Notes under the pieces: generated by a model
The model's database searches: none
What the model saw: the letters and a program-made list of their open reading frames with translations, nothing else
What the model was told of the DNA's origin: nothing
Made by a program: the position numbers and the translations under genes
Shown here: positions 1,534-31,444 of the stretch, piece by piece
How positions within the stretch are numbered: the stretch's first letter is position 1
How the letters are laid out: each line of letters starts with the position of its first letter
From: a virus
Taxonomy: Duplodnaviria > Heunggongvirae > Uroviricota > Caudoviricetes
Reading direction: 5' to 3' (one strand)
Length of the DNA stretch: 32,996 nt
IMG/VR virus record: IMGVR_UViG_2778261300_000002
Coordinates: 1-32,996 of that record

Positions 1534-1575
1534 AGAAATGACGTATGTTAAATAGATTGAAAAGATAAGATTCAA

Positions 1576-2151
1576 ATCAATTAAATGACGCTTTAAAAAT
1601 AAGCGGCAGGATTTTATTCATCTGATAAAAATAGCGCAAGCGTTGTCTTATATGGAATATTCAGATAAGTCTTATCAAAAAAAGCGGTATAACAAATACA
1701 TAACATTGCGGCCATTATAAATACATTATAAAAATGACAGAGATATTTAATTAAATCCAAAGCATTTTTTCAATATGGATTTCGAAGAACTTGTTATAGT
1801 ACATTAATCAATCAATTATTGGTATTTCGCTCACTGTTCATATAGTTTTAATACATCAATGCATAAGAACATTTTCTCATTCATAAAAGCGATAAAAACT
1901 GTTGTACCTTATATTGTTAATGTTTGGTAACAAAGACAAATCCGACAAGGCATTGATCATCCCCTATGATACCCATAGAAAGAATTATCTGAAATATAAT
2001 AACAATATAAAGTATATTATTGCTAATGAAACTATATGATAGCTTCACATTCAGCAATACCTGCTCAACCTTATCTCTGGAAATGAACATTGCTAACTTT
2101 CCTACTCCTTAATCGTTCTCCCAGAGCGCATCATCCACACCGACAATCCCC
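1576..2151 (-). promoter_or_regulatory. AT-rich 5' region of the adhesin gene (likely own promoter)
   Basis: 575 bp strongly AT-rich non-coding DNA between stf stop and adhesin start; no ORF of at least 60 aa. Confidence 0.3.
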
Positions 2152-4404
2152 TCAGGCATCATCGTATGTTGCCCGATACAGTTCACCGTTCATCCCGTAA
2201 AAAACAGCCATCTTCAGCATCAGCGGGACAGTAAGGTTATTCCGCATCTCATCAGCGAAAAATAAATCAATCACACCTGTAAACTGTACTTCCGGTATAA
2301 TTTCGCAGTCAGCGCTGACCGTATACCGCCCCGGTGTGGCATTTGAGATCCAGTCAAGAAGCACTTCCTTCGACGAAAAGCTGAGAACGTCACCTTTTGT
2401 GAAGATATGCCCGAATCCCAGACTTCCTGCAACAGCGGCCCGCCCCTGCGTTCTGTCATAAATGCCTGACTGAAGCCCATAATTTCCGCCTGCTGCTGAG
2501 TTTCCACTATTTCCATTGATACCCAGAACGTCACACATCTCTTCGGCTGTGGATTGTGACAACAGCTGTTTCCCTTTTTCAGAAACAGGAGCCAGAGAAC
2601 ACTGCCCGTTACCGCTAAAACTGGGAAACCCATCTTCACCGGATGGAAGACTGCCTAACGCAGTCAGAACGGGATTTAAAGGCTGTTTTCCGGCCAGCAT
2701 CTTCATTATCGTTACGGAAAACGCCGGGTCATTACCCAGCGCCTCCGCCAGTTCGTTCAGCGTGTCCAGGGTTTCAGGAGATGAACCCACAAGAGCAGCA
2801 AGCAGTTTGCGGACAAACGCCGCATTCACTGTTTCCAGACCTGAAGCATCGTCCGGTGGTGTCGGTGTCATAGGGGTACCGGTGAAGACCGGACTATCCA
2901 GTGACGCTTTTGTCTTCACCTCATTCATGACGTTACTGACTGCAAGGGATGTGGCGGCCTCTGTCTGCGAAGTGCTGTCAGTACGGTTACTGAGCTTGAC
3001 AACTCCCTTTGTGGTCGTACTGGCATCTTCCAGGCCCACAGCAGATGCAATCTCCTCTGCCCGTTTTGCCGCATTTTCTGCGCGTGTTGCTGCAGACTCA
3101 GCAGAACTTTTGCTCTGCACTGCCGCTGTCGCACTGCCAGCTGCCTCTGTCGCCTTCGCGGATGCCGTCGTGGCACTGCCCTGCGCCTCTGACGCCAGCC
3201 TTGCCGCCTCATCTTTTGAAGCTGACGCCGATGATGCTGATGACGCCGCCGAACTGGCGGACGATACGGCTGCCGTTTTTGAGGATTCTGCGCTGGCTTC
3301 CGACGCTTTCGCGTTCGTCTCTGATGTCTTCGCTGCGGAAGCAGATCTCTCTGCTGCACTGGCCTGTTCAGCGGCTTCACCAGCCTTCGTTGTGGCTGCT
3401 GAAGCGGACGATGCAGCGCTTTCTGCCGATTTTCCGGCGGCGGTGGCACTGGCTGAGGCCTCCTCCGCTTTAACTGACGCCTCACGGGACGATGATGCAG
3501 CGGCAGTTTCTGAGCCTTCCGCTGCAGAAGCGCTCTGTGCCGCTGCCGTTTCAGAAGACCTTGCGTTCGTCTCGGACGTTTTTGCCGCCTTCGCGGAATT
3601 GCCTGCCGCCGTTGCCGAGGACGCTGCACCACTGGCGCTCAAGGCGGCGTTCGTTTCTGATGATTTTGCCGCCTCTTTTGAAGCCGACGCATCCCTGGCT
3701 GAGGTGGCAGCTTCTGACGCTTTCGTGGTCGCGGTGGATGCAGAAGTGGCGGCTGATTGTTGTGACGCTGCCGCATTCGTTTCTGACATTTTCGCCGCAC
3801 CGGCACTGGTGGCCGCCGCGCGTTTTGAGGACTCTGCAGCAGCGGCACTTTTTGATGCCTCAGTGGCCTTTGCTGATGCCGTTTCTGCGCCGGAAGACGC
3901 TTCCTGAGCCGACGTCGCAGCCTGTCCGGCGAACGTGCTGGCGGCGCGTGCTGAGTCCGCAGCATCAGTCGCATGGGTTGCCGCCTCACGGGCTGATGTA
4001 CCGGCATCGCTGGCTGATTTTTTCGCAGCTGCCGTATTCTGTGCCACTGAGGACGCGTTACGCGCCACCTCTTCCACCATCAGCTCAAAACGGCGCAGTG
4101 CCTCCGGACGGGCATCATCCTCCGTCATGGCACCGAGAAAATCATTCAGCGTACCGGGTTGAGAATCTTCATACACGGTGATGGTCCCGGCATGTGACGG
4201 CGGAAAACCGTCAACCAGCAGGATGACAGCGTACTGGCCATACTCAACATCCATACTGTAACGCCCGGCTTCATCCGGATTTTCTGAGGCCACCGTGTTC
4301 ACCACCACCGTGGTGCTGTTACGTTTTGCTTTCAGCTGAATGGTGCAGTTCTGTACCGGTTTACCTGCACCGTCTTTCAGCACGCCTGAAATCTTTACTG
4401 GCAT
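2152..4404 (-). CDS. stf: Side tail fibre protein Stf (lambda Stf-like N-terminus, divergent C-terminal domain)
   Basis: N-terminus MPVKISGVLKDGAGKPVQNCTIQLKA...GRYSMDVEYGQY...GFPPSHAGTITVYEDSQPGTLNDFL matches lambda Stf as remembered; long Ala/Ser/Thr-rich central region; lies directly after J. Confidence 0.9.
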   Translation of the reverse strand: MPVKISGVLKDGAGKPVQNCTIQLKAKRNSTTVVVNTVASENPDEAGRYSMDVEYGQYAVILLVDGFPPSHAGTITVYEDSQPGTLNDFLGAMTEDDARPEALRRFELMVEEVARNASSVAQNTAAAKKSASDAGTSAREAATHATDAADSARAASTFAGQAATSAQEASSGAETASAKATEASKSAAAAESSKRAAATSAGAAKMSETNAAASQQSAATSASTATTKASEAATSARDASASKEAAKSSETNAALSASGAASSATAAGNSAKAAKTSETNARSSETAAAQSASAAEGSETAAASSSREASVKAEEASASATAAGKSAESAASSASAATTKAGEAAEQASAAERSASAAKTSETNAKASEASAESSKTAAVSSASSAASSASSASASKDEAARLASEAQGSATTASAKATEAAGSATAAVQSKSSAESAATRAENAAKRAEEIASAVGLEDASTTTKGVVKLSNRTDSTSQTEAATSLAVSNVMNEVKTKASLDSPVFTGTPMTPTPPDDASGLETVNAAFVRKLLAALVGSSPETLDTLNELAEALGNDPAFSVTIMKMLAGKQPLNPVLTALGSLPSGEDGFPSFSGNGQCSLAPVSEKGKQLLSQSTAEEMCDVLGINGNSGNSAAGGNYGLQSGIYDRTQGRAAVAGSLGFGHIFTKGDVLSFSSKEVLLDWISNATPGRYTVSADCEIIPEVQFTGVIDLFFADEMRNNLTVPLMLKMAVFYGMNGELYRATYDDA

Positions 4405-4415
4405 ATTCGTTCCAC

Positions 4416-4443
4416 AAATAAAAAAGGTGCCATTTGTGGCACC
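4416..4443 (-). terminator. Rho-independent terminator between J and stf
   Basis: Perfect hairpin GGTGCCA-nnnn-TGGCACC followed by TTTTTTATTT on the minus strand. Confidence 0.5.
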
Positions 4444-4462
4444 CGGTCTGGTTTCTGAACAT

Positions 4463-5401
4463 TCAGCTGATACTGATACCTGCTGTGGATTTCTTCATCA
4501 CCACAACCAGTAAATCGCTGATGTACGTTGTCGGCGTCCAGTTGTTCGCACCGGTCGACGACACATTAAACGTCAGGGTGACATGACCCCGTCCTGCTGG
4601 CATGTCAATCACCGATGAGAACACCCGGCTGACATCCGTTGCCGGTTCATGGAAGATCTCAGCCCCGTTTTTCAGCACCTGCAGCTTGCAGGTGGAGTAC
4701 CAGTACGACTGCTGATTCGGGCTGTTGAAATTCTGGTGTTTCGTCCCGCGAAACACCACCGGGGGAATGATAATCTGCCGGTCGAAGCCCTGGTCATCAT
4801 AAACCGTGACAGTTATCTTGCCACTGGCATAACTGTTATTTCGGGGAAAGGCCTTCCCCACTGTTTTGACAATATCGCCTTCAATCTGGTTCGCGGACAG
4901 TTTTCCCAGAACCCGACAGTTCTCGTTAATCGTGACATTGTTGAGCGTCCCGGCGTTCGCATTCACACTGCCACTGATATCCGCATTTTTCGCCGTCAGC
5001 CGCCCGTCCGGTGTCAGGGAAAATACCGGCGGATTTCCACCGCTGGTAATGGTGGGGGCCGTCAGGCGTTTCAGGAACACGTCGTTCATGAATATCTGAT
5101 TGCCCTGCGCCACAAACATCGGCGTTTCATTCCCGTTTGCCGGGTCAATAAACGCGATACGGTTAGCGGCAACCAGAAACTGGCTCAGTTTGCCTTCCTC
5201 CGTGTCCTCCATGCTGAGGCCAATACCCGCGACATAATGTTTGCCGTCTTTGGTCTGCTCAATTTTGACAGCCCACATGGCATTCCACTTATCGTTGGCG
5301 TCCTTCCACTCTTTCGAAAACTCCTCCAGTCTGCTGGCGTTATCCTCCGTCAGCTCGACTTTTTCCAGCAGCTCCTTGCCGAGATGGGATTCGGTTATCC
5401 A
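4463..5401 (-). pseudogene. J: Host specificity protein J, C-terminal fragment only (about 300 aa)
   Basis: Translation ...[116 protein letters not shown]... matches the C-terminus of lambda J (full length 1132 aa); no start codon or N-terminal 800+ aa. Confidence 0.8.
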
Positions 5402-6165
5402 GCACAGCCTGCACGGACAGGCCGGTATATGCCGACACCTTCTGTGCAAACATCCGGCGGGTTGCATCCATCCGGGACTGCAGTGTTTCCCGGACATCAT
5501 CCGGTAGATGGCTGTAGGGGTTGCCATCCACCTTATGGCTGCCGCTGTAAATCAGCGTGATTTCCACGCCCTGTTTCTCCAGCGCAGCGCCGTAATTACT
5601 GTGAGCCATCATGACGCCGATGGAGCCTGTCCGGGCGGTCTGCGTGACCAGACGCCGGGAGGAGGCACTGGCAAGCAGCTGACCTGCGCTGCAGTTCATG
5701 TCATTGGCCAGCGCCCATACCGGCTTTATGTCACGCACACGGGCGATGATGTCAGCACAGTCAAATGCTCCCGCCACCATCCCGCCCGGTGTGTCCATAT
5801 CCAGCAGAATGCCGTCCACCATCGGATCGCTGGCAGCCTGTTGCAGACGGGCGATAATGCCGTTGTAACCGGTCATTCCCGAATACGGCTGCAGCGCCCG
5901 CGTCCGGCTGACCAGCGTACCGGACACCGGCAGCACGGCGATGCCGTTCATGACCTGATAACTGCGGGCCTGTCGTGGTCCGTCATCATCACCGGATAAC
6001 GCCAGCGCCGCGGGTGCCTCTCCGGCAGTCAGGCTGTCGCCGGATACTGCATCCGTCAGGCGGCTGATCCCAAGCTGGCCTGCAAGCGCACAAAAGAAAA
6101 CCCGCGCATAGGCGGGTTCAAGCATCAGCGGCTCATTAAAAGCCATGCTGGCAATATGCGGGAGA

Positions 6166-6185
<20 letters not shown>
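5340..6185 (-). pseudogene. C: Head protease/scaffold protein C (S49 peptidase family), truncated
   Basis: GTG start at 6185 overlapping the end of B as in lambda; VTAELRNLPHIASMAFNEPLMLEPAYARVFF...[17 protein letters not shown] matches lambda C, then diverges near 5400 and stops at 5340; lambda C is 439 aa. Confidence 0.8.
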
Positions 6186-9416
<3,231 letters not shown>

Positions 9417-9442
<26 letters not shown>

Positions 9443-9962
9443 TCAGCAACCCCGGTATCAGTTCATCCAGCGCGGCTGCTTTGTTCATGGCTTTGATGAT
9501 ATCCCGTTTCAGGAAATCAACATGTCGGTTTTCCAGTTCCGGAAAACGCCGCTGCACCGACAGGGGGATCCCGTCGAGAATACTGGCAATTTCACCTGCG
9601 ATCCGCGACAGCACGAAAGTACAGAATGCGGTTTCCACCACTTCAGCGGAGTCTCTGGCATTTTTCAGCTCCTGTGCGTCGGCCTGCGCACGCGTAAGTC
9701 GATGGCGTTCGTACTCAATAGTCCCTGGCTGGAGATCTGTCTCGCTGGCCTGCCACAGTTCTTCAACTTCCCGGCGCAGCTTTTCGTTCTCAATTTCAGC
9801 ATCCCTTTCGGCATACCATTTTATGACGGCGGCAGAATCATAAAGCACCTCATTACCCTTGCCACCGCCTCGCAGAACTGGCATTCCCTGTTCCTGCCAG
9901 TTCTGAATGGTACGGATACTCGCACCGAAAATGTCAGCCAGCTGCTTTTTGTTGACTTCCAT
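9417..9962 (-). CDS. nu1: Terminase small subunit Nu1
   Basis: 181 aa, MEVNKKQLADIFGASIRTIQNWQEQGMPVLRGGGKGNEVLYDSAAVIKWY... matches lambda Nu1; overlaps the start of A as in lambda. Confidence 0.9.
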
Positions 9963-13716: not shown

Positions 13717-13792
13717 TGGAGCGAAGAACAGGAATCGAACCTGCATCATCAACTCAGAAGATTGATGGTAATAGCCATTATACGATCTCCGC
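13717..13792 (-). tRNA. tRNA-Arg(UCU)-like gene with atypical anticodon-stem/variable-loop geometry
   Basis: 76 nt: acceptor GCGGAGA/TCTTCGC, T-arm GCAGG-TTCGATT-CCTGT, anticodon loop CTTCTGA, encoded CCA. Anticodon stem folds as 6 bp with a 3-nt variable loop. The ORF-track peptide MMERRTGIEPA is this tRNA read as protein. Confidence 0.55.
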
Positions 13793-17026: not shown

Positions 17027-17049
17027 AACAAAAAACCCGCCGAAGCAGG
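17027..17049 (-). terminator. Rho-independent terminator at the 3' end of the hok-like locus
   Basis: Minus-strand hairpin CCTGC-TTCG-GCGGG followed by TTTTTTGTT. Confidence 0.5.
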
Positions 17050-17139
17050 TTAAGTGCGGTTGCGTTGAAGTCTCCTAGCCAAAGAGTAGCGGTGACAACT
17101 CCCCGCCGATAATCTTAGTTGTTTAATTTCGTAAGCTAA

Positions 17140-17265
17140 CTAGGCTAAAAGATCTATGTTCCCTTGCTTGATGTGCAACTCGCAAGGCGAACCGCGAACC
17201 ATCCAGACCAAAACCAGAATGGTGCAACAAACCACCACCAGACAGAACACATAGTTCCTTCGCAT
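17140..17265 (-). CDS. Hok/Gef-family type I toxin homolog (41 aa, ends at an in-frame TAG; possibly truncated or a pseudogene)
   Basis: Translation MRRNYVFCLVVVCCTILVLVWMVRGSPCELHIKQGNIDLLA has the Hok layout (single TM, then CE-x-[HR]-x-[KR] motif). In-frame TAG is immediately followed by codons for LAYE, the conserved Hok C-terminal motif. Below the 60-aa ORF-track cutoff. Confidence 0.55.
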   Translation of the reverse strand: MRRNYVFCLVVVCCTILVLVWMVRGSPCELHIKQGNIDLLA

Positions 17266-17482
17266 GTATGTTGATTTGAAATTTAGTGGGGAGACATTCC
17301 TGTAGGCAATCTTTGATGGAAACCAGTTAATACTTTATAGTGATATCTCAGATAGTTAAACGCAAGTTAACTTTGTGATTGTTCATATACCCGCATTTTG
17401 TTATAACGAATACTATAGGCAATATGTACTAGACTCATATACAATGACTACATGAGAGCAGGAGAAAAATCTGGAGGTTACG

Positions 17483-17701
17483 ATGGCAAATTTTATACCA
17501 CGCATTTTAGGACTGAAATCAGCCGAAAAGGAAATGCAACTTGCCGAGCGCATCGAAAAATCAGGCGCTACGGAAGTAGAAGTTGTTGGACGCGGTGGTG
17601 TGATAACTTCAAAACAAGCTCTCGCATCATCTGAAACAGTTAAACTTATGAGATTTGAAGCGAAAAAAATAGTCGCTCAAACACCGACTAATAAAGAATA
17701 A
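17483..17701 (+). CDS. Hypothetical small protein (72 aa), first gene of a two-gene cassette
   Basis: ATG at 17483 with GGAGG Shine-Dalgarno 7 nt upstream; stop 2 nt before the next ATG (coupled); AT-rich. Confidence 0.5.
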   Translation: MANFIPRILGLKSAEKEMQLAERIEKSGATEVEVVGRGGVITSKQALASSETVKLMRFEAKKIVAQTPTNKE

Positions 17702-17703
17702 AT

Positions 17704-18468
17704 ATGTTTGCATTCTTGATTATTCCTTTGTTGGTGAGCGGTTTTATTATTATAACCACTCATCCATATCATTTTTACAGATTACATCGTTATGATGGAC
17801 AACTTTTGTATATGAAAGCAGCAAAATACGGACTTTGGTGTCTGATTTGGTCTGTATTTATTGCTTTCGCAATCAAATATTACCTTCCTTCAGTTCATAT
17901 TGTGACTCAAGTCTCACAATCATTGAGTTTAGGAGAAAATTCATATCAAAAAAGAATCACTGTCTGGTTGATCCTTCTTTCGTGTACATCTGTAGTAATT
18001 GCATGGCTGTCAGGTATAATTACGAATTGGTTTACAACTTTTCGTAGCCAAATGATTTATAAACTATTATATAAAAAAGATATAAGTATAGAAGATAGCA
18101 AAGAGTTAGTTAAATTAAGGACATTGCAAGATTTAGTCACCGAAGGATCAATGGATAGTGTTTTTTTTGATTCACTGATAGATAGAAAATCAATTCTGAT
18201 TAGTATGAATAACAAAAAAGTCTATGTCGGAATTGTCAACGCATTAGGAGAGCCAAATGAAAAAGACGGCCCAAACCAGCAAATTTCTATTCTTCCCATT
18301 ATGTCTGGATACCGAGAAAATGATACATTAAATGTATGCTTTACTAATGATTATAACAATATAGAAGATTATGATACAAGTGTTATCATTCCAGTTTCCC
18401 AGATCACTCAAGTTTCATGGTTCACCATTGAAGTTCATGATAAAGTTAATAACAACTGTAAAAGTTAG
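17704..18468 (+). CDS. Hypothetical membrane protein (254 aa; three N-terminal TM helices plus soluble C-terminal domain)
   Basis: Hydrophobic segments FAFLIIPLLVSGFIIITT, LWCLIWSVFIAFAIKYYL, ITVWLILLSCTSVVIAWLSGII; AT-rich; ends at a bidirectional terminator shared with the S8 protease gene. Confidence 0.6.
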   Translation: MFAFLIIPLLVSGFIIITTHPYHFYRLHRYDGQLLYMKAAKYGLWCLIWSVFIAFAIKYYLPSVHIVTQVSQSLSLGENSYQKRITVWLILLSCTSVVIAWLSGIITNWFTTFRSQMIYKLLYKKDISIEDSKELVKLRTLQDLVTEGSMDSVFFDSLIDRKSILISMNNKKVYVGIVNALGEPNEKDGPNQQISILPIMSGYRENDTLNVCFTNDYNNIEDYDTSVIIPVSQITQVSWFTIEVHDKVNNNCKS

Positions 18469-18490
18469 TCAAACTTTATGATTAATTAAC

Positions 18491-18518
18491 AAAAAGAGGC
18501 CTAACGGCCTCTTTATTT
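18491..18518. terminator. Bidirectional rho-independent terminator between convergent genes
   Basis: AAAAA-GAGGCC-TAAC-GGCCTC-TTTATTT; serves the plus-strand membrane protein gene and the minus-strand S8 protease gene. Confidence 0.7.
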
Positions 18519-20772
18519 AGCGTATCTGGATTCTTTCCTCATTACTTACTATTATATCATCACTTTCCCAACCTAATAAATCAAGTTCAGAAACGGCTTC
18601 AGAATAAATATCTTTATCCGCAGATAACGAACGTAAAGTAATCAGCAATACAGCCCGCTGTGGAAACTCAAGTTTATCTTGCTCTGCTCTACGTTGCACA
18701 TCTATTTTTAGTCTCCACGTATTCCCTTGTGTGCCTTGAGGGTACTTTTTCCTATACACTTTTATTGGTGACCATTTAAAACCATTCTCTATGAGATACT
18801 TCTCATATAATTCACTTTTATCCTTTACTTGAGGCACCTTGCTTATGTGTTTTCTTTTTTTTGTTTTATCAAAGTCGTATGTTCCAAAAGAAACATCTAC
18901 ATTAGATCGGCAATATTCTGAAGGGTAGTTCGGATCTAATGGCGGAGAGTAAACAAGAGTCATTAATATCTCTCCTGTAAATTTTCCCTCATCATTTTTT
19001 AAAGAATTAGGGATTACAAATGGATAGCGACCAAACTCTTCACCTTCAAGAGTATTAACTTCAAAAAGAAATGTTATTTCATTTTTCTTACAAGATAACA
19101 TATCTGAAATATTATCTTTTGGAATACCAAAACCATGATAATTTATTTCTTTTGGATCAATTTGATCCGTTCGCTCTAACATCGCTGAATGAATGATTAA
19201 TGCTTTCACTCTTTCCGGTGATGGTGAAATATTGCTATTTAATTGCAGCTCATGCCATGTTGCAGCTGCAATACTTGAGATTAGTGGAGTGGAGAGGCTT
19301 GTACCAACAGATTCCGATAAGTGACCATTATCTCCAATAGCAAATATTCCTAAATCAGAAAAATCAAGATTTGCCCTGCAGTTCCCACCAAAATGAGTAA
19401 CTTCAGGTTTTGGAATACAGGAAGGCCCGGGGCCTCTTCTGGAAAAGGATGATGGTTGGTTTGCTTTTACAATGGAGTCGGCACAATCTACATGTGCAAC
19501 AGATCCCACCGTCAAAGCTCGCACAGAATCCCCCGGAGCGGAAATACGATCACAATCTGATAGCTCCTGAGGCGGCCAAGTGCGTTGCGGTAAAGATTCG
19601 TAATTACCAGATGCAACAACAAAAAGGCATCCATGTTCATCATGCAAATAACTCAACAAATGACCAAGTTCGGAAAAATTATCACTATGGCAGGCTTCTT
19701 TCTGTCCGAGAGATAGATTCCATATTTTTACTTCAGGGAAATCCTCAACAGCTGTTGTAATTATATTCGCAAGTTCTGGTAGTGATAGTTCTGTATCCGC
19801 AGGAAACGCTGCAATATCAACCACCTCCGCATGTGTATTAGGAAACCCTTCGTAGTTTCTATTTAACCCTTTACTATCAATGATTAAACTTGCCACCATA
19901 TTGCCGTGAGTATAATCGGCCTTCCTTCCATTAAGAAAGCTCCTTCTTCCCCATACCCATGGAGAGATATCCCTATTGTTTGGGTCAATACCACTATCTA
20001 TTATCCCTACTAATGGATAATGTGCATCTACATCAGGAATCGGTAATAATGCCTTTTTTTCGGCTGCTGTTTTTGATATTATTGCTTCACTATTATCCAG
20101 CTTAAAAGTGGGCATTGGCTGTAACTTCCTAACACCAATGAAATTTGATAATTCATAAATGTTGTTATTTTCAGGAACTTCAAAATAAAAAATATCATTT
20201 CCAATCGTGTGTTTATTTGGCTCAGGAATATTTAACTCAGCCATCATTAATTTCAATGACTCTTCAAGGGATTTATTTTTCTTCCTATTCCTGTGATCAA
20301 ATAATTTCAAGATATATGTTTTGGCCCCCTCATCTGCTATTCTGTCACAAATGAAGGGTTCGATTTTATCAATAACAGCAATATGGAGCGTACCATTTTT
20401 GGTTTTCGTGCTATTTTGTATTTTAGATTCAAGCCTAGAAAGGCCCTCTTCGGTTACACTTACTAATAATTCACCCAAATTACAACTACCAATTACGGGA
20501 CAGGTTTTGTCTCCAAGCAAACTAGTAGGACGATGTGATTTCGCTAAAGCTTTATCATGCAGAGTAACTTTTGCTACCGCAGGCACTCCCGGCCACTTTC
20601 GGAATGAGTCTCTAAAGTGTTCGGACACACATCTAACTTCATTTTTGAGCCTAGATAATAACTCTTTTGTTACTGGGCGAATGGGTTCCTTTTCAGTAAA
20701 ACCGTAGGTTTTGTCATTAAAATCTTTTGCAAATGTCTTAATGATTTTTATGGGCCTTTCAACTTTGCTCAT
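18517..20772 (-). CDS. S8 subtilase-family serine protease (IetS-like)
   Basis: 751 aa; catalytic triad motifs VGIIDSGID (Asp), HGNMVAS (His), GTSLSTP (Ser); about 240-aa N-terminal and 200-aa C-terminal extensions; AT-rich. Confidence 0.8.
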   Translation of the reverse strand: MSKVERPIKIIKTFAKDFNDKTYGFTEKEPIRPVTKELLSRLKNEVRCVSEHFRDSFRKWPGVPAVAKVTLHDKALAKSHRPTSLLGDKTCPVIGSCNLGELLVSVTEEGLSRLESKIQNSTKTKNGTLHIAVIDKIEPFICDRIADEGAKTYILKLFDHRNRKKNKSLEESLKLMMAELNIPEPNKHTIGNDIFYFEVPENNNIYELSNFIGVRKLQPMPTFKLDNSEAIISKTAAEKKALLPIPDVDAHYPLVGIIDSGIDPNNRDISPWVWGRRSFLNGRKADYTHGNMVASLIIDSKGLNRNYEGFPNTHAEVVDIAAFPADTELSLPELANIITTAVEDFPEVKIWNLSLGQKEACHSDNFSELGHLLSYLHDEHGCLFVVASGNYESLPQRTWPPQELSDCDRISAPGDSVRALTVGSVAHVDCADSIVKANQPSSFSRRGPGPSCIPKPEVTHFGGNCRANLDFSDLGIFAIGDNGHLSESVGTSLSTPLISSIAAATWHELQLNSNISPSPERVKALIIHSAMLERTDQIDPKEINYHGFGIPKDNISDMLSCKKNEITFLFEVNTLEGEEFGRYPFVIPNSLKNDEGKFTGEILMTLVYSPPLDPNYPSEYCRSNVDVSFGTYDFDKTKKRKHISKVPQVKDKSELYEKYLIENGFKWSPIKVYRKKYPQGTQGNTWRLKIDVQRRAEQDKLEFPQRAVLLITLRSLSADKDIYSEAVSELDLLGWESDDIIVSNEERIQIR

Positions 20773-20809
20773 TCATTTTTCCTTTACAATTTTCCAGTTC
20801 TATTTTTAA

Positions 20810-21979
20810 CTAACCCACCTTTGTAGTATCTTGCCTTCTTGAGGATTTACTCTTAGACGTTAACCTAGATACCTTATTTGCTGAAATTGAAAGTAAACTA
20901 GCAATTTTTCTTACTGTAAATACTCTCTCATCACAATTTCTAATTAATTTTGCTAATTTTTCTATTATTTGTTCTGGTTGATCAAACTTCTCTCCTTTAG
21001 ATTCCCAAATAGACATCATAAGAAAAGTTGTATCAAATTTACCATTATTAAATAAAATAGAATGGCGAAGCGCACGCTCGCATATTTGTTCAATAAACGC
21101 ACATGACAAGTCTTTTGAGAGAACAGCGGAGTCATATGCAACATCTAATGTTGGAAAATGCTGATTCAATAATCTTTCATATAGACGTTCTCTCACTTTT
21201 AAATCAGGTAAACCAATTTCGAGTCTGTATGAAAATCTACGCCAAACCGCATTATCTAGTAAATTCTCGTGATTGCTGGCAGATATAAGTACAGTATGTT
21301 CAGGAAGATCATCAATGTTTTGTAACAATGCAACAACAACTCTTTTTAATTCACCCAATTCATGTTGATCATCTCTGGCTTTTGCCAAAGCATCAAGTTC
21401 GTCCAGAAATAGAACGCAAGGTTGATTGCTTGCATACTCAAAAAGAGTGCGTATATTTTTAGCTGTTGAACCTAAATATGACGATACCAACGCATCACAC
21501 CGCGCAGTGAAAAGAGGTAATCTCAACTCAGATGCAATATGCTTAGCTGCAAGAGTTTTGCCACAACCTGGAGGACCAAAAAGTATCATTGAGGATGCAG
21601 CTTTTAATCCATATTTCTTCAGTTCATCTCTTCGTATTACTGATGTAATAAATTCATTAATTTTTTCATTAATCGAGTTATTCAAAATAGGTGGAGCTAC
21701 GTTGATCTCAGGCTCTGTTTTATCTGCCAGATGAAATTTTGTTTCATTATCAGTAGGAACTGAATATGCCTTTGTGGAGAGGCTATTTTGAGTAAAGTTT
21801 GCTTTCTGAAGCGAGAATGTAGTTTCCTGCTTCAAGAAGCTTCGTATTGTTTTCGCGAGTTCGCGCTCACCTTCCGCATCCATCTCTCTTGCAACTTTTG
21901 CTGCAATTCTCTGGAAGGTTATTTTATCGCCTATGACCCCTGACTTTATGAGGTCTACCAATAACTCGCCGTTGTTCAT
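20810..21979 (-). CDS. AAA+ ATPase (IetA-like)
   Basis: Walker A GPPGCGKT, Walker B VLFLDELD, arginine-finger region NAVWRRF. Start set at the ATG giving MNNGELLVDL...; the ORF-track start at 22030 is a TTG. Immediately upstream of the S8 protease gene. Confidence 0.8.
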   Translation of the reverse strand: MNNGELLVDLIKSGVIGDKITFQRIAAKVAREMDAEGERELAKTIRSFLKQETTFSLQKANFTQNSLSTKAYSVPTDNETKFHLADKTEPEINVAPPILNNSINEKINEFITSVIRRDELKKYGLKAASSMILFGPPGCGKTLAAKHIASELRLPLFTARCDALVSSYLGSTAKNIRTLFEYASNQPCVLFLDELDALAKARDDQHELGELKRVVVALLQNIDDLPEHTVLISASNHENLLDNAVWRRFSYRLEIGLPDLKVRERLYERLLNQHFPTLDVAYDSAVLSKDLSCAFIEQICERALRHSILFNNGKFDTTFLMMSIWESKGEKFDQPEQIIEKLAKLIRNCDERVFTVRKIASLLSISANKVSRLTSKSKSSRRQDTTKVG

Positions 21980-22039
21980 GTGATACAAAAATCCCCTAAC
22001 ATAGTTGAAAACCGTGTGATAATGACACAAATCCTGATT

Positions 22040-22488
22040 TTTTCAAAAATATCATTGTAAATATGGAACATCAATACTCACAAAGATACTCAGTTCTACT
22101 TACGTTGCTTTATCCATTCAAGTGCTTTCAATACGGTTTCCATTTCCCCCCTTAAACTCTGTTACCAGCTCCCCGCCTGCTCCAGAAAATTTTGTGTATC
22201 TGGTATCAGCACCAGTTACGGCGGCATTCCTACACTACTGCGGTTATCGGTGGTGTCGGTCTTTCGGTCACCGCTTTGGAGACACAGACTTTTTCCTGCC
22301 AGCTCGGTGCAAGCCAATACTTTTTCCCTTCCCGGCTAAGTCGCCCGTACCGCAGCATGTTCTGAATTAGGTTGTGTATTTTTTGATAGTTACGCCAAGA
22401 GCATCAGCCATCTCGCGGGGGGGGGGATCCCCGTTCTCCAGCAGATACCTGATAGCGGCCTGTTGGTTTTCCTGTTCATACCTCTGAC
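22040..22488 (-). other. Decayed remnant DNA at the island/replication-module junction, containing a G10 homopolymer
   Basis: Only short broken reading frames (e.g. ...EQENQQAAIRYLLENGDPPPREMADALGVTIKKYTT); G10 run at 22417..22426 followed by ATCCCC. Confidence 0.35.
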
Positions 22489-23235
22489 CTACCTCACTGC
22501 GCCAGCCTGACCAACATTCGGGCGCCAGCTCTCCCAGTTAAAATTCACCCAGCGCCCGCCGTTCATGGTCATGCGATCCATAATTCGCTCGCCGAGCAAT
22601 GTTTTCATGGCCTCATAGTTCAGGTTTGTCAGCATCCCCACGCTGCGCATCGACGCTGTCCGGCGATCAACAATCTGATGCAGCACCACCTGCTCGTTTT
22701 TTGTCTCGCGCTGAATGCCAATTTCATCAAGAACCAGCAGATCCACTTCGCACAGTTCCCGCAAAAATTTTTTGCCTGATTGCCCGTCGTCATAGCTGGC
22801 GTGTAGAGCACTCATGACATCAGCCACGGTAACCACAATCACTGTCTGGCCATCTTTCAGCAAGCGATTCCCGATAGCCGCCGCCAGATGGTTTTTTCCG
22901 GTACCAGGTTTTCCGCTGAACGCAAAATTTGTACACCCGGCCATCAGTTCATCAGCGATAGATTTCGCCTGGCTCAACGCGTATCGCTGACCGTCGTTCT
23001 GCACCAGGTAATTCGCAAACGAGCATTTACAGTGCAACGGCTGGATGCCTGAGCGATTCAGAATTTTTTCCACCCGCAACTGGCGATTCAGGCGGTTGAT
23101 CTCCTCGCTACGTTTCTGGCCTTCAGCAAGTTGCCACTCGCGCCACTCCGCTACCGTTCTGAATGGGGCGGTTACATGTGGCGGGGCTAGTCTGCGGATA
23201 CGTTCAAGAACGCCGCCTGTCGCAATATTTTTCAT
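22489..23235 (-). CDS. DnaC-like replication protein (helicase loader, Rac YdaV-like)
   Basis: 248 aa; Walker A FSGKPGTGKNHLAAAIG, Walker B DLLVLDEIG; DnaC/IstB family. Confidence 0.85.
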   Translation of the reverse strand: MKNIATGGVLERIRRLAPPHVTAPFRTVAEWREWQLAEGQKRSEEINRLNRQLRVEKILNRSGIQPLHCKCSFANYLVQNDGQRYALSQAKSIADELMAGCTNFAFSGKPGTGKNHLAAAIGNRLLKDGQTVIVVTVADVMSALHASYDDGQSGKKFLRELCEVDLLVLDEIGIQRETKNEQVVLHQIVDRRTASMRSVGMLTNLNYEAMKTLLGERIMDRMTMNGGRWVNFNWESWRPNVGQAGAVR

Positions 23236-31056: not shown

Positions 31057-31200
31057 ATGACAAAAACTTTGAGATATGACGATGTTAAACCATGTCCGTT
31101 TTGTGGTTGTCCATCAGTAACGGTGAAAGACATTTCAGGATATTACCGGGTAAAATGCAACGGATGCGAATCCCGAACTGGCTATGGTGGAAGTGAATAA
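31057..31200 (+). pseudogene. ralR: Restriction-alleviation protein RalR/Lar, interrupted by a premature TAA
   Basis: MTKTLRYDDVKPCPFCGCPSVTVKDISGYYRVKCNGCESRTGYGGSE then TAA at 31198..31200; the same frame continues EALERWNKRTTENINGGVHV and ends in a stop overlapping the ydaC start, the expected full-length arrangement. Confidence 0.7.
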
Positions 31201-31255
31201 GAAGCGCTCGAAAGATGGAATAAACGAACCACTGAAAATATTAATGGAGGCGTTC

Positions 31256-31444
31256 ATGTATAAAATTACCGCTACAATTGAAAAGGAAGGTGGCACTCCT
31301 ACTAACTGGACAAGATATTCAAAATCTAAACTAACGAAATCAGAATGCGAAAAAATGCTCTCAGGTAAAAAAGAAGCAGGCGTTTCCAGAGAGCAGAAAG
31401 TAAAACTGATAAATTTTAATTGCGAGAAACTTCAGTCCTCGTGA
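31256..31444 (+). CDS. ydaC: YdaC-like small protein
   Basis: 62 aa from the ATG at 31256 (GGAGG Shine-Dalgarno): MYKITATIEKEGGTPTNWTRYSKSKLTKSECEKMLSGKKEAGVSREQKVKLINFNCEKLQSS. Confidence 0.65.
   Translation: MYKITATIEKEGGTPTNWTRYSKSKLTKSECEKMLSGKKEAGVSREQKVKLINFNCEKLQSS

Follow-up and report, generated by a model that had tools for sequence, protein, structure and literature searches.

The ietA and ietS genes and their place in a Rac-like prophage

The 32,996-nucleotide window analyzed here, IMG/VR virus record IMGVR_UViG_2778261300_000002 over its full length, carries two neighboring minus-strand genes, here called ietA and ietS, that encode a AAA+ ATPase of 389 amino acids (aa) and an S8-family protease (subtilase) of 751 aa. 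An initial annotation made from the letters of the window had described two co-directional genes 37 nucleotides apart, and a six-frame open reading frame (ORF) list agreed, giving the positions in Table 1 and a spacer at 20773 to 20809. The mechanical ORF list begins ietA at a TTG (22030), whereas in RefSeq and the homologues the start is the ATG at 21979, from which the 389 aa are counted, with alignment from residue 1. Each catalytic motif that had been named was located by script: Walker A (GPPGCGKT, aa 135 to 142) and Walker B (FLDELD, aa 191 to 196) in IetA, and the triad motifs DSG (aa 259 to 261), HGN (aa 289 to 291), and GTS (aa 490 to 492) in IetS, where the oxyanion motif SGN was found at aa 388 to 390.

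Profile searches showed that the two proteins match IetA and IetS over their full lengths. The ATPase matched PADLOC IetA (PDLC02196; expect value [E] 2e-131), with residues 2 to 378 of 389 on profile positions 2 to 372 of 374, and the protease matched PADLOC IetS (PDLC02197; E 1.2e-270), with residues 1 to 745 of 751 on positions 1 to 746 of 749. The best NCBIfam matches were "anti-phage ATPase IteA" (E 2.3e-116) and "S8 family anti-phage peptidase IteS" (E 3e-239), and Pfam returned AAA (E 1.9e-31) and Peptidase_S8 (E 2.2e-27). Moreover, in a gene-order survey of 48 IMG/VR loci and the genome loci retrieved, each of the approximately 45 related loci with upstream sequence had an IetA homologue immediately 5' of IetS and in the same orientation. 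The initial annotation had proposed an IetAS-like architecture of ATPase and then S8 protease and had held that a lack of significant similarity to IetA/IetS would speak against it; the similarity is clear, and the IetAS interpretation is thus supported.

A database search with IetS returned a separate Enterobacterales clade of at least 57% identity, then one sequence at 49%, and then a broad group at 45% or less that includes proteins NCBI does call IteS. We conclude that, judged by sequence, the locus belongs to a divergent clade of IetAS and is not a copy of the experimentally tested system.

According to the RefSeq annotation, the genes lie in a Rac-like prophage at ttcA with intR, xisR, recET, kilR, and ydaS/T/U/V-type genes. 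Most morphogenesis genes have been lost; because the terminase large-subunit gene abuts the tail fiber genes (window approximately 3380 to 9960), with no portal, capsid, or tail tube genes between, the prophage is defective. The module sits between the DnaC-like gene ydaV and the hok/gef, DUF1367 (ybcN-like), DUF1364 (ybcO-like), and DUF1133 genes, as the initial annotation had read it when it placed the module between a DnaC-like gene and ybcN/ybcO/Q. Homology to the flanks of three related prophages (L068 to L070) ends at 17068 and returns at 22514. The same slot holds RmrT/RmrA (RosmerTA; E 1.4e-18 and 5.7e-107) in related Escherichia coli prophages, and other cargo found there in related prophages comprises a PD-Lambda-2_C-like gene with a "cll" partner and QueH with a Doc-type toxin. 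The stretch from ydaV to hok is therefore a cargo hotspot, and the module is cargo in a defense slot. Since the slot holds other defense cargo in related prophages, a defense role is more plausible than a phage-housekeeping one. We conclude that the two genes very probably belong to the IetAS family, a two-gene, toxin-antitoxin-like abortive infection system, and that the defective Rac-like prophage carries them as AT-rich accessory cargo, in the slot between its replication and late genes.

Domain organization of IetA and IetS

Besides its Walker motifs, IetA has a pore loop-1 (YLG, aa 168 to 170) and an Arg finger region (WRRF, aa 246 to 249). Across 44 IetA sequences drawn from the fetched loci, Walker A, Walker B, an aromatic-Leu-Gly at 168 to 170, and an ASN..LD.A.WRRF Arg finger region were conserved. 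The best relatives in the PDB were p97/Cdc48 D2 domains, NSF, and Rix7 (approximately 1e-49). A pore loop and Arg fingers are hallmarks of the classical-clade AAA+ machines that thread polypeptides, such as those of the Cdc48/p97, FtsH, and PAN type. IetA has both the aromatic-hydrophobic-Gly pore loop-1 and the Arg fingers, within a second region of homology, that are expected of this clade, and because both are intact, it is probably a hexameric protein-threading machine. Separately, the IetA tail at aa approximately 352 to 375 (FTVRKIASLLSISANKVSRLT; window approximately 20855 to 20926, minus strand) resembles a helix-turn-helix, which would fit an autoregulating antitoxin; it has no Pfam match, and its conservation across the 44 sequences is weak.

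Conservation spans the whole length of IetS in a 30-sequence family alignment, in which D259, H289, N390, and S492 are invariant, as is an ALAKSHRP motif at aa 75 to 82; EYCR and GFKWS motifs lie in the C-terminal part. A confident AlphaFold model (predicted local distance difference test [pLDDT] score, 87; predicted template modeling [pTM] score, 0.90) places two beta-alpha-beta-beta-alpha-beta units at approximately 62 to 139 and 152 to 219. A poorly ordered linker follows, and after it come the catalytic domain at approximately 253 to 545 and a C-terminal beta-sandwich at approximately 560 to 740. The N-terminal units are probable tandem subtilase-prodomain-like modules, a grade at which we keep them because Pfam calls no Inhibitor_I9 domain in IetS. 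The large N- and C-terminal extensions of unknown function that the initial annotation described are present, and they can be refined: they are family-wide rather than lineage specific and, in the model, prodomain-like and beta-sandwich, respectively. No N-terminal signal peptide was evident by eye (no predictor was run), and by that reading IetS is predicted to be cytoplasmic.

Subtilases in which a retained prodomain serves as an inhibitor include pro-subtilisin E, Tk-SP, PCSK9, and clostridial CspB/CspA. Compared with these, IetS has two prodomain-like modules and an N-terminal helix with the invariant ALAKSHRP motif, and unlike them it is predicted to be cytoplasmic, has a AAA+ ATPase partner, and has no Pfam I9 match. 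Among solved structures, neither IetA nor IetS had a relative beyond generic AAA+ proteins and subtilases, which leaves no structural precedent from which to take a mechanism.

The convergent gene pair and the surroundings of the cassette

The initial annotation had also noted that the module is richer in AT than its flanks, and the GC content of 17373 to 22069 is indeed 0.36, against 0.47 and 0.51 on the two sides. Its description of a two-gene module holds for ietA and ietS themselves, but not for the AT-rich island, which contains four genes. The additional two form a pair on the plus strand (17483 to 18468), convergent to ietS, that encodes a 72-aa protein and a 254-aa membrane protein. 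The 48-nucleotide gap separating ietS from the membrane protein gene holds a hairpin, AAAGAGGCC-loop-GGCCTCTTT, that is probably a bidirectional terminator. For the two proteins of the pair, Pfam and NCBIfam gave no match and PADLOC none that was credible, and both proteins fall in PHROGs without assigned function. A PADLOC match of the 254-aa protein to HEC-01B (E 0.009, 13.8 bits) was taken as chance. The features of the membrane protein include a conserved LHRYDGQLLY loop, long helices, and a C-terminal Sm/LSm/WYL-like small beta-barrel (aa 164 to 239) that bears GEPNE and SGYR motifs. Family members are approximately 250 to 290 aa in length, and in every one examined a small ORF, with a product of 60 to 80 aa, sits upstream.

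The four genes appear to move as a unit. A single blastn block covering 17373 to 22069 was 79% identical to a Salmonella/Citrobacter integrase/AlpA island (L013), and it includes positions 21980 to 22069, such that the candidate ietA promoters (Table 1) fall inside conserved sequence. In E. coli, Rahnella, and Yersinia, P2-like prophages carry the same genes in the same arrangement at their tin/old-type hotspot, and thus the cassette is found on lambdoid, P2-like, and integrase-island backbones. Within the IetS clade of at least 57% identity, the pair was in the convergent position in 13 of 13 loci examined, and the identities in Table 1 show that all four proteins co-diverge. Outside that clade, the L035 locus (IetS 34% identical) also has a convergent pair, made up of a 69-aa ORF and, downstream of it, a distant homologue of the membrane protein (hhalign probability 98%, E 2e-13); the pair seems to have joined this second lineage independently or anciently. 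Approximately 30 other IetAS loci had no pair, including those with IetS at 49% and 44% identity. Convergent downstream genes at other IetAS loci (201 aa in Dongshaea, 216 aa and 57 aa in L076, and 248 aa and 160 aa in L079) were rejected as members of the membrane protein family (E > 0.1). The cassette had no megablast match among 50,697 phage records, and approximately 4.9 kb around the module was present in 3 of 5426 complete E. coli genomes, 100% identical in E. coli ZYB62 (bovine, China) and 99.6 to 99.9% identical in the other two.

The pair also occurs without IetAS. In an E. coli prophage it comes after the integrase, and 841 contigs carry one variant of it; it is also present in Yersinia P2 hotspots and in islands of Vibrio, Pseudoalteromonas, and Legionella. 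A 1526-aa gene convergent to the stand-alone E. coli pair was rejected as a defense partner, as it is a neighboring adhesin gene of the AIDA autotransporter type. In Pseudoalteromonas sp. CR1 (GCA_019392235.1; L073, 2463 to 6801), a stand-alone pair lies beside a different ATPase/protease couple: a 670-aa tandem-AAA protein, the second AAA domain of which matches the IetA profile (3.4e-30), and a convergent S49/SDH-type serine protease, in an island that also has an MmeI-type restriction enzyme, an integrase, and an HD protein. The proximity of this couple could be due to chance, or the pair could have here a second type of AAA-plus-protease partner. We conclude that the pair is most likely a separate, autonomous mobile-element module that has become welded to IetAS in this clade and is not an obligatory subunit. 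Possibly it is a defense or exclusion system, and it is a candidate new module of mobile elements or of defense.

Several further observations concern the surroundings. Terminator-like hairpins lie near the hok/gef ORF, at 17034 to 17051 and 17218 to 17239, and Rfam found no Sok or hok mRNA element at the gathering threshold. The approximately 420 bp between ydaV and the cassette border (22070 to 22488) match neither the related prophages nor other copies of the cassette; they contain a 10-nucleotide G homopolymer (C when read on the minus strand), at approximately 22417 to 22426 and inside a short minus-strand ORF, that could be slippage prone. L068, L069, and L070 also carry DUF1627 and DUF977 genes that are missing in the window. 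The RalA antitoxin small RNA is intact (31262 to 31440, minus strand; Rfam RF02694, 218 bits), and the ralR toxin gene (approximately 31070 to 31264, plus strand) is annotated in the RefSeq record of identical sequence as a pseudogene, interrupted by an internal stop, which leaves an antitoxin RNA without a working toxin. Elsewhere, a tRNA-Arg gene (13720 to 13792, minus strand) lies upstream of the lysis cassette, and an AT-rich YadA-like adhesin gene (approximately 1561 to 2769, minus strand) lies at the ompN-side end.

Table 1. Coordinates of the features at the ietAS locus and of homologues of the convergent pair (window positions unless another locus is named)
Feature	Position	Strand	Remarks
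Variable cargo slot of lambdoid backbone	17069-22513		Window part not shared with related prophages
Hok/Gef-family toxin ORF	17140-17265	-	41 aa; name from the Prokaryotic Genome Annotation Pipeline (PGAP); inside slot, just outside four-gene block
Four-gene cassette	17373-22069		Unit moving between mobile elements; 4.7 kb, one contiguous blastn alignment
72-aa protein gene	17483-17701	+	Conserved V-VGRG motif; PHROG 37504; ends 2 nucleotides before membrane protein gene
254-aa membrane protein gene	17704-18468	+	Convergent to ietS; three predicted transmembrane helices
Hairpin	18493-18514		Terminator scan; perfect 9-bp GC-rich stem, A and T runs on either side
ietS	18517-20772	-	751-aa predicted cytoplasmic S8 subtilase
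ietA	20810-21979	-	389-aa classical-clade AAA+ ATPase; PADLOC, NCBIfam, Pfam, PDB relatives, 44-sequence motif conservation
Candidate sigma-70-like promoter matches 5' of ietA	22083-22054 and 22046-22019	-	Consensus scan only
Pair homologue, L013	5779-6765		% identity to window proteins: IetA 87, IetS 87, membrane protein 88, small protein 90
Pair homologue, L016	5775-6771		% identity to window proteins: IetA 60, IetS 72, membrane protein 70, small protein 64
Pair homologue, L018	5754-6762		% identity to window proteins: IetA 55, IetS 63, membrane protein 62, small protein 58
Pair homologue, L002	7844-8844		% identity to window proteins: IetA 56, IetS 60, membrane protein 55, small protein 53
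Pair homologue, L035	8123-9261	-	

Function of the module and its relation to known systems

IetAS, or IteAS, was reportedly described as an anti-phage system by Gao and colleagues in 2020. The genes of the window resemble that system in being co-directional, with a AAA+ ATPase first and a protease of approximately 750 aa second, in having intact catalytic motifs, and in lying on a mobile element. They differ from the IetAS/IteAS models in belonging to a clade that is at least 57% identical internally, at most 49% identical to the broad "IteS" group, and always joined to the convergent pair. According to PMC13069673, which cites the original work, the family first became known as a toxin-antitoxin pair of plasmids, in which IetS is a protease toxin that active IetA neutralizes; protection against phage, for which protease activity is needed, was found later (PMC13069673). 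Plasmids mutated in ietA could not be built in the published work, and the mechanism was still called unknown in 2026 (PMC13069673). Agrobacterium Ti plasmid pTiC58 has an IetAS of the same two families, with an inferred logic of protease toxin and ATPase antitoxin according to that citing article (Yamamoto et al. 2009, cited in PMC13069673), but it concerns plasmid stability, whereas the module here is prophage cargo; IetS relatives on Agrobacterium/Rhizobium plasmids are approximately 26% identical to IetS of the window, over the C-terminal two-thirds only. The IetAS of Bacillus cereus m1293 is of the same family and was shown to act by abortive infection, becoming toxic upon expression of a single SPbeta protein, YosG (Stokar-Avihail et al., bioRxiv 10.1101/2022.08.27.505566), but this homologue is Gram positive and its set of phages differs. 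The three-gene ietHAS (Liu-DS4; PMC13069673) likewise adds to an IetAS core, in that case a SNF2 helicase, and sets a precedent for module recruitment. Unlike in ietHAS, the extra genes of the window encode small and membrane/Sm-like proteins and are convergent, outside the operon, and neither the ORF list nor the RefSeq annotation has a SNF2-family helicase ORF adjacent to ietAS.

IetAS has also been seen in E. coli prophages, and was cloned from ECOR52 (bioRxiv 10.1101/2022.08.21.504612), and PADLOC-based genome surveys list it in Salmonella mobile elements and porcine enterotoxigenic E. coli. Because published reports precede this one, the kind of system and its occurrence in E. coli prophages are already known, and the locus is a divergent new member of the family that brings no new principle. 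A literature search for the names "IteS/IteA" retrieved only unrelated uses of the words, and the RefSeq accessions of the four cassette proteins were not met in the literature searched.

One way in which the module could act is as follows. IetS would be held as a zymogen-like enzyme, probably so because prodomain-like modules are retained in front of the catalytic domain. In the uninfected cell, ATP-driven holding, remodeling, or unfolding by IetA would keep IetS harmless, until a phage product either acts on IetA, by titrating or blocking it, or engages the accessory domains of IetS. Freed IetS would then cleave essential cytoplasmic proteins, and death or arrest of the cell would precede phage release. 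The same logic would stabilize the prophage as an addiction module. That IetA restrains rather than activates IetS is inferred from the published antitoxin behavior, and from nothing computed here.

Some points weigh against assignment of the locus to a two-gene, anti-phage IetAS. The NCBIfam models (NF042959 and NF042956) have equivalog cut-offs of 510 bits for IteA_antiphage and 900 bits for IteS_antiphage, and the scores of the window proteins, 389 and 796 bits, fall below them, which is why RefSeq/PGAP gives the generic names "AAA family ATPase" and "S8 family peptidase." Scores of this kind mean that the proteins are not equivalogs of the model seed proteins; they are not proof of lying outside the family. 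The nearest relative bearing the NCBI name IteS is approximately 42% identical, and phage range, or even activity, could differ; the anti-phage role of this allele is drawn from sequence comparison and the literature, and the sequence alone is compatible with either restraint or activation of IetS by IetA. Moreover, the host prophage is defective, and the module might be kept only as an addiction element. Finally, a model of two genes only does not account for the strict co-inheritance of the pair in this clade.

That co-inheritance raises the possibility that the whole cassette is the functional unit in this Enterobacterales clade, with IetAS as a four-gene system in which the 72-aa and 254-aa proteins are integral. 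The membrane protein would then be of a new kind, with three transmembrane helices and a cytoplasmic Sm/WYL-like barrel, and may be an effector or sensor in the membrane, either cleaved by IetS or signaling to IetAS, in the manner of an added module like the ietHAS helicase. The invariant convergent position on three kinds of backbone, the co-divergence, the same orientation at distant L035, and the rarity of both families (112 and 556 clusters in 5.8 billion proteins) argue for such a unit. So does the record of IetAS in recruiting additional essential modules (PMC13069673), and the ECOR52 IetAS, which may or may not belong to this clade, was reportedly among the single systems that gave limited protection when cloned alone (bioRxiv 10.1101/2022.08.21.504612). 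The pair is, however, a separate convergent transcription unit behind a probable terminator, stands without IetAS in E. coli and the four other genera, and is absent from the approximately 30 further IetAS loci. Two-gene IetAS from other organisms is reported to be active by itself. On balance, we regard a four-gene system as possible but rather unlikely.

Less likely still is that the module serves only for addiction, stabilizing the prophage remnant by postsegregational killing as first described for the Ti plasmid IetAS, with no phage defense here. The origin of the family as a plasmid-stabilizing system, as cited in PMC13069673, would suit that role, as would the retention of a heavily deleted prophage, the hok/gef toxin gene beside the cassette, and the many plasmids that carry IetS relatives. 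Yet toxin-antitoxin activity and abortive infection are not exclusive, and defense has been demonstrated for IetAS homologues. The slot and the P2 hotspot occupied by relatives are typical sites of defense cargo, and a chromosomal prophage remnant has little need of stabilizing. An ordinary protease with a chaperone-like ATPase, in housekeeping or phage morphogenesis, is very improbable. S8 and AAA domains are generic, and PHROG families 3757 and 3964 place such genes in phage genomes, but the full-length, highly specific matches to defense profiles and the presence of the module in so few complete E. coli genomes effectively refute that role, and the location is a variable accessory slot rather than a morphogenesis module.

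As a member of the IetAS family, the module represents a divergent allele that standard annotation by PGAP leaves unnamed, and it offers a domain-level hypothesis, in which a threading AAA+ ATPase would act on a protease with retained prodomain-like modules. One IetAS clade that is always welded to an uncharacterized pair, which also exists alone, constitutes a natural experiment. The relation between pair and IetAS, be it synergy between neighbors or an extended system, might account for the weak phenotypes of IetAS cloned alone. Under the four-gene reading, the pair alone would be a previously unrecognized mobile-element module in P2 hotspots, prophage ends, and defense islands across the Gammaproteobacteria.

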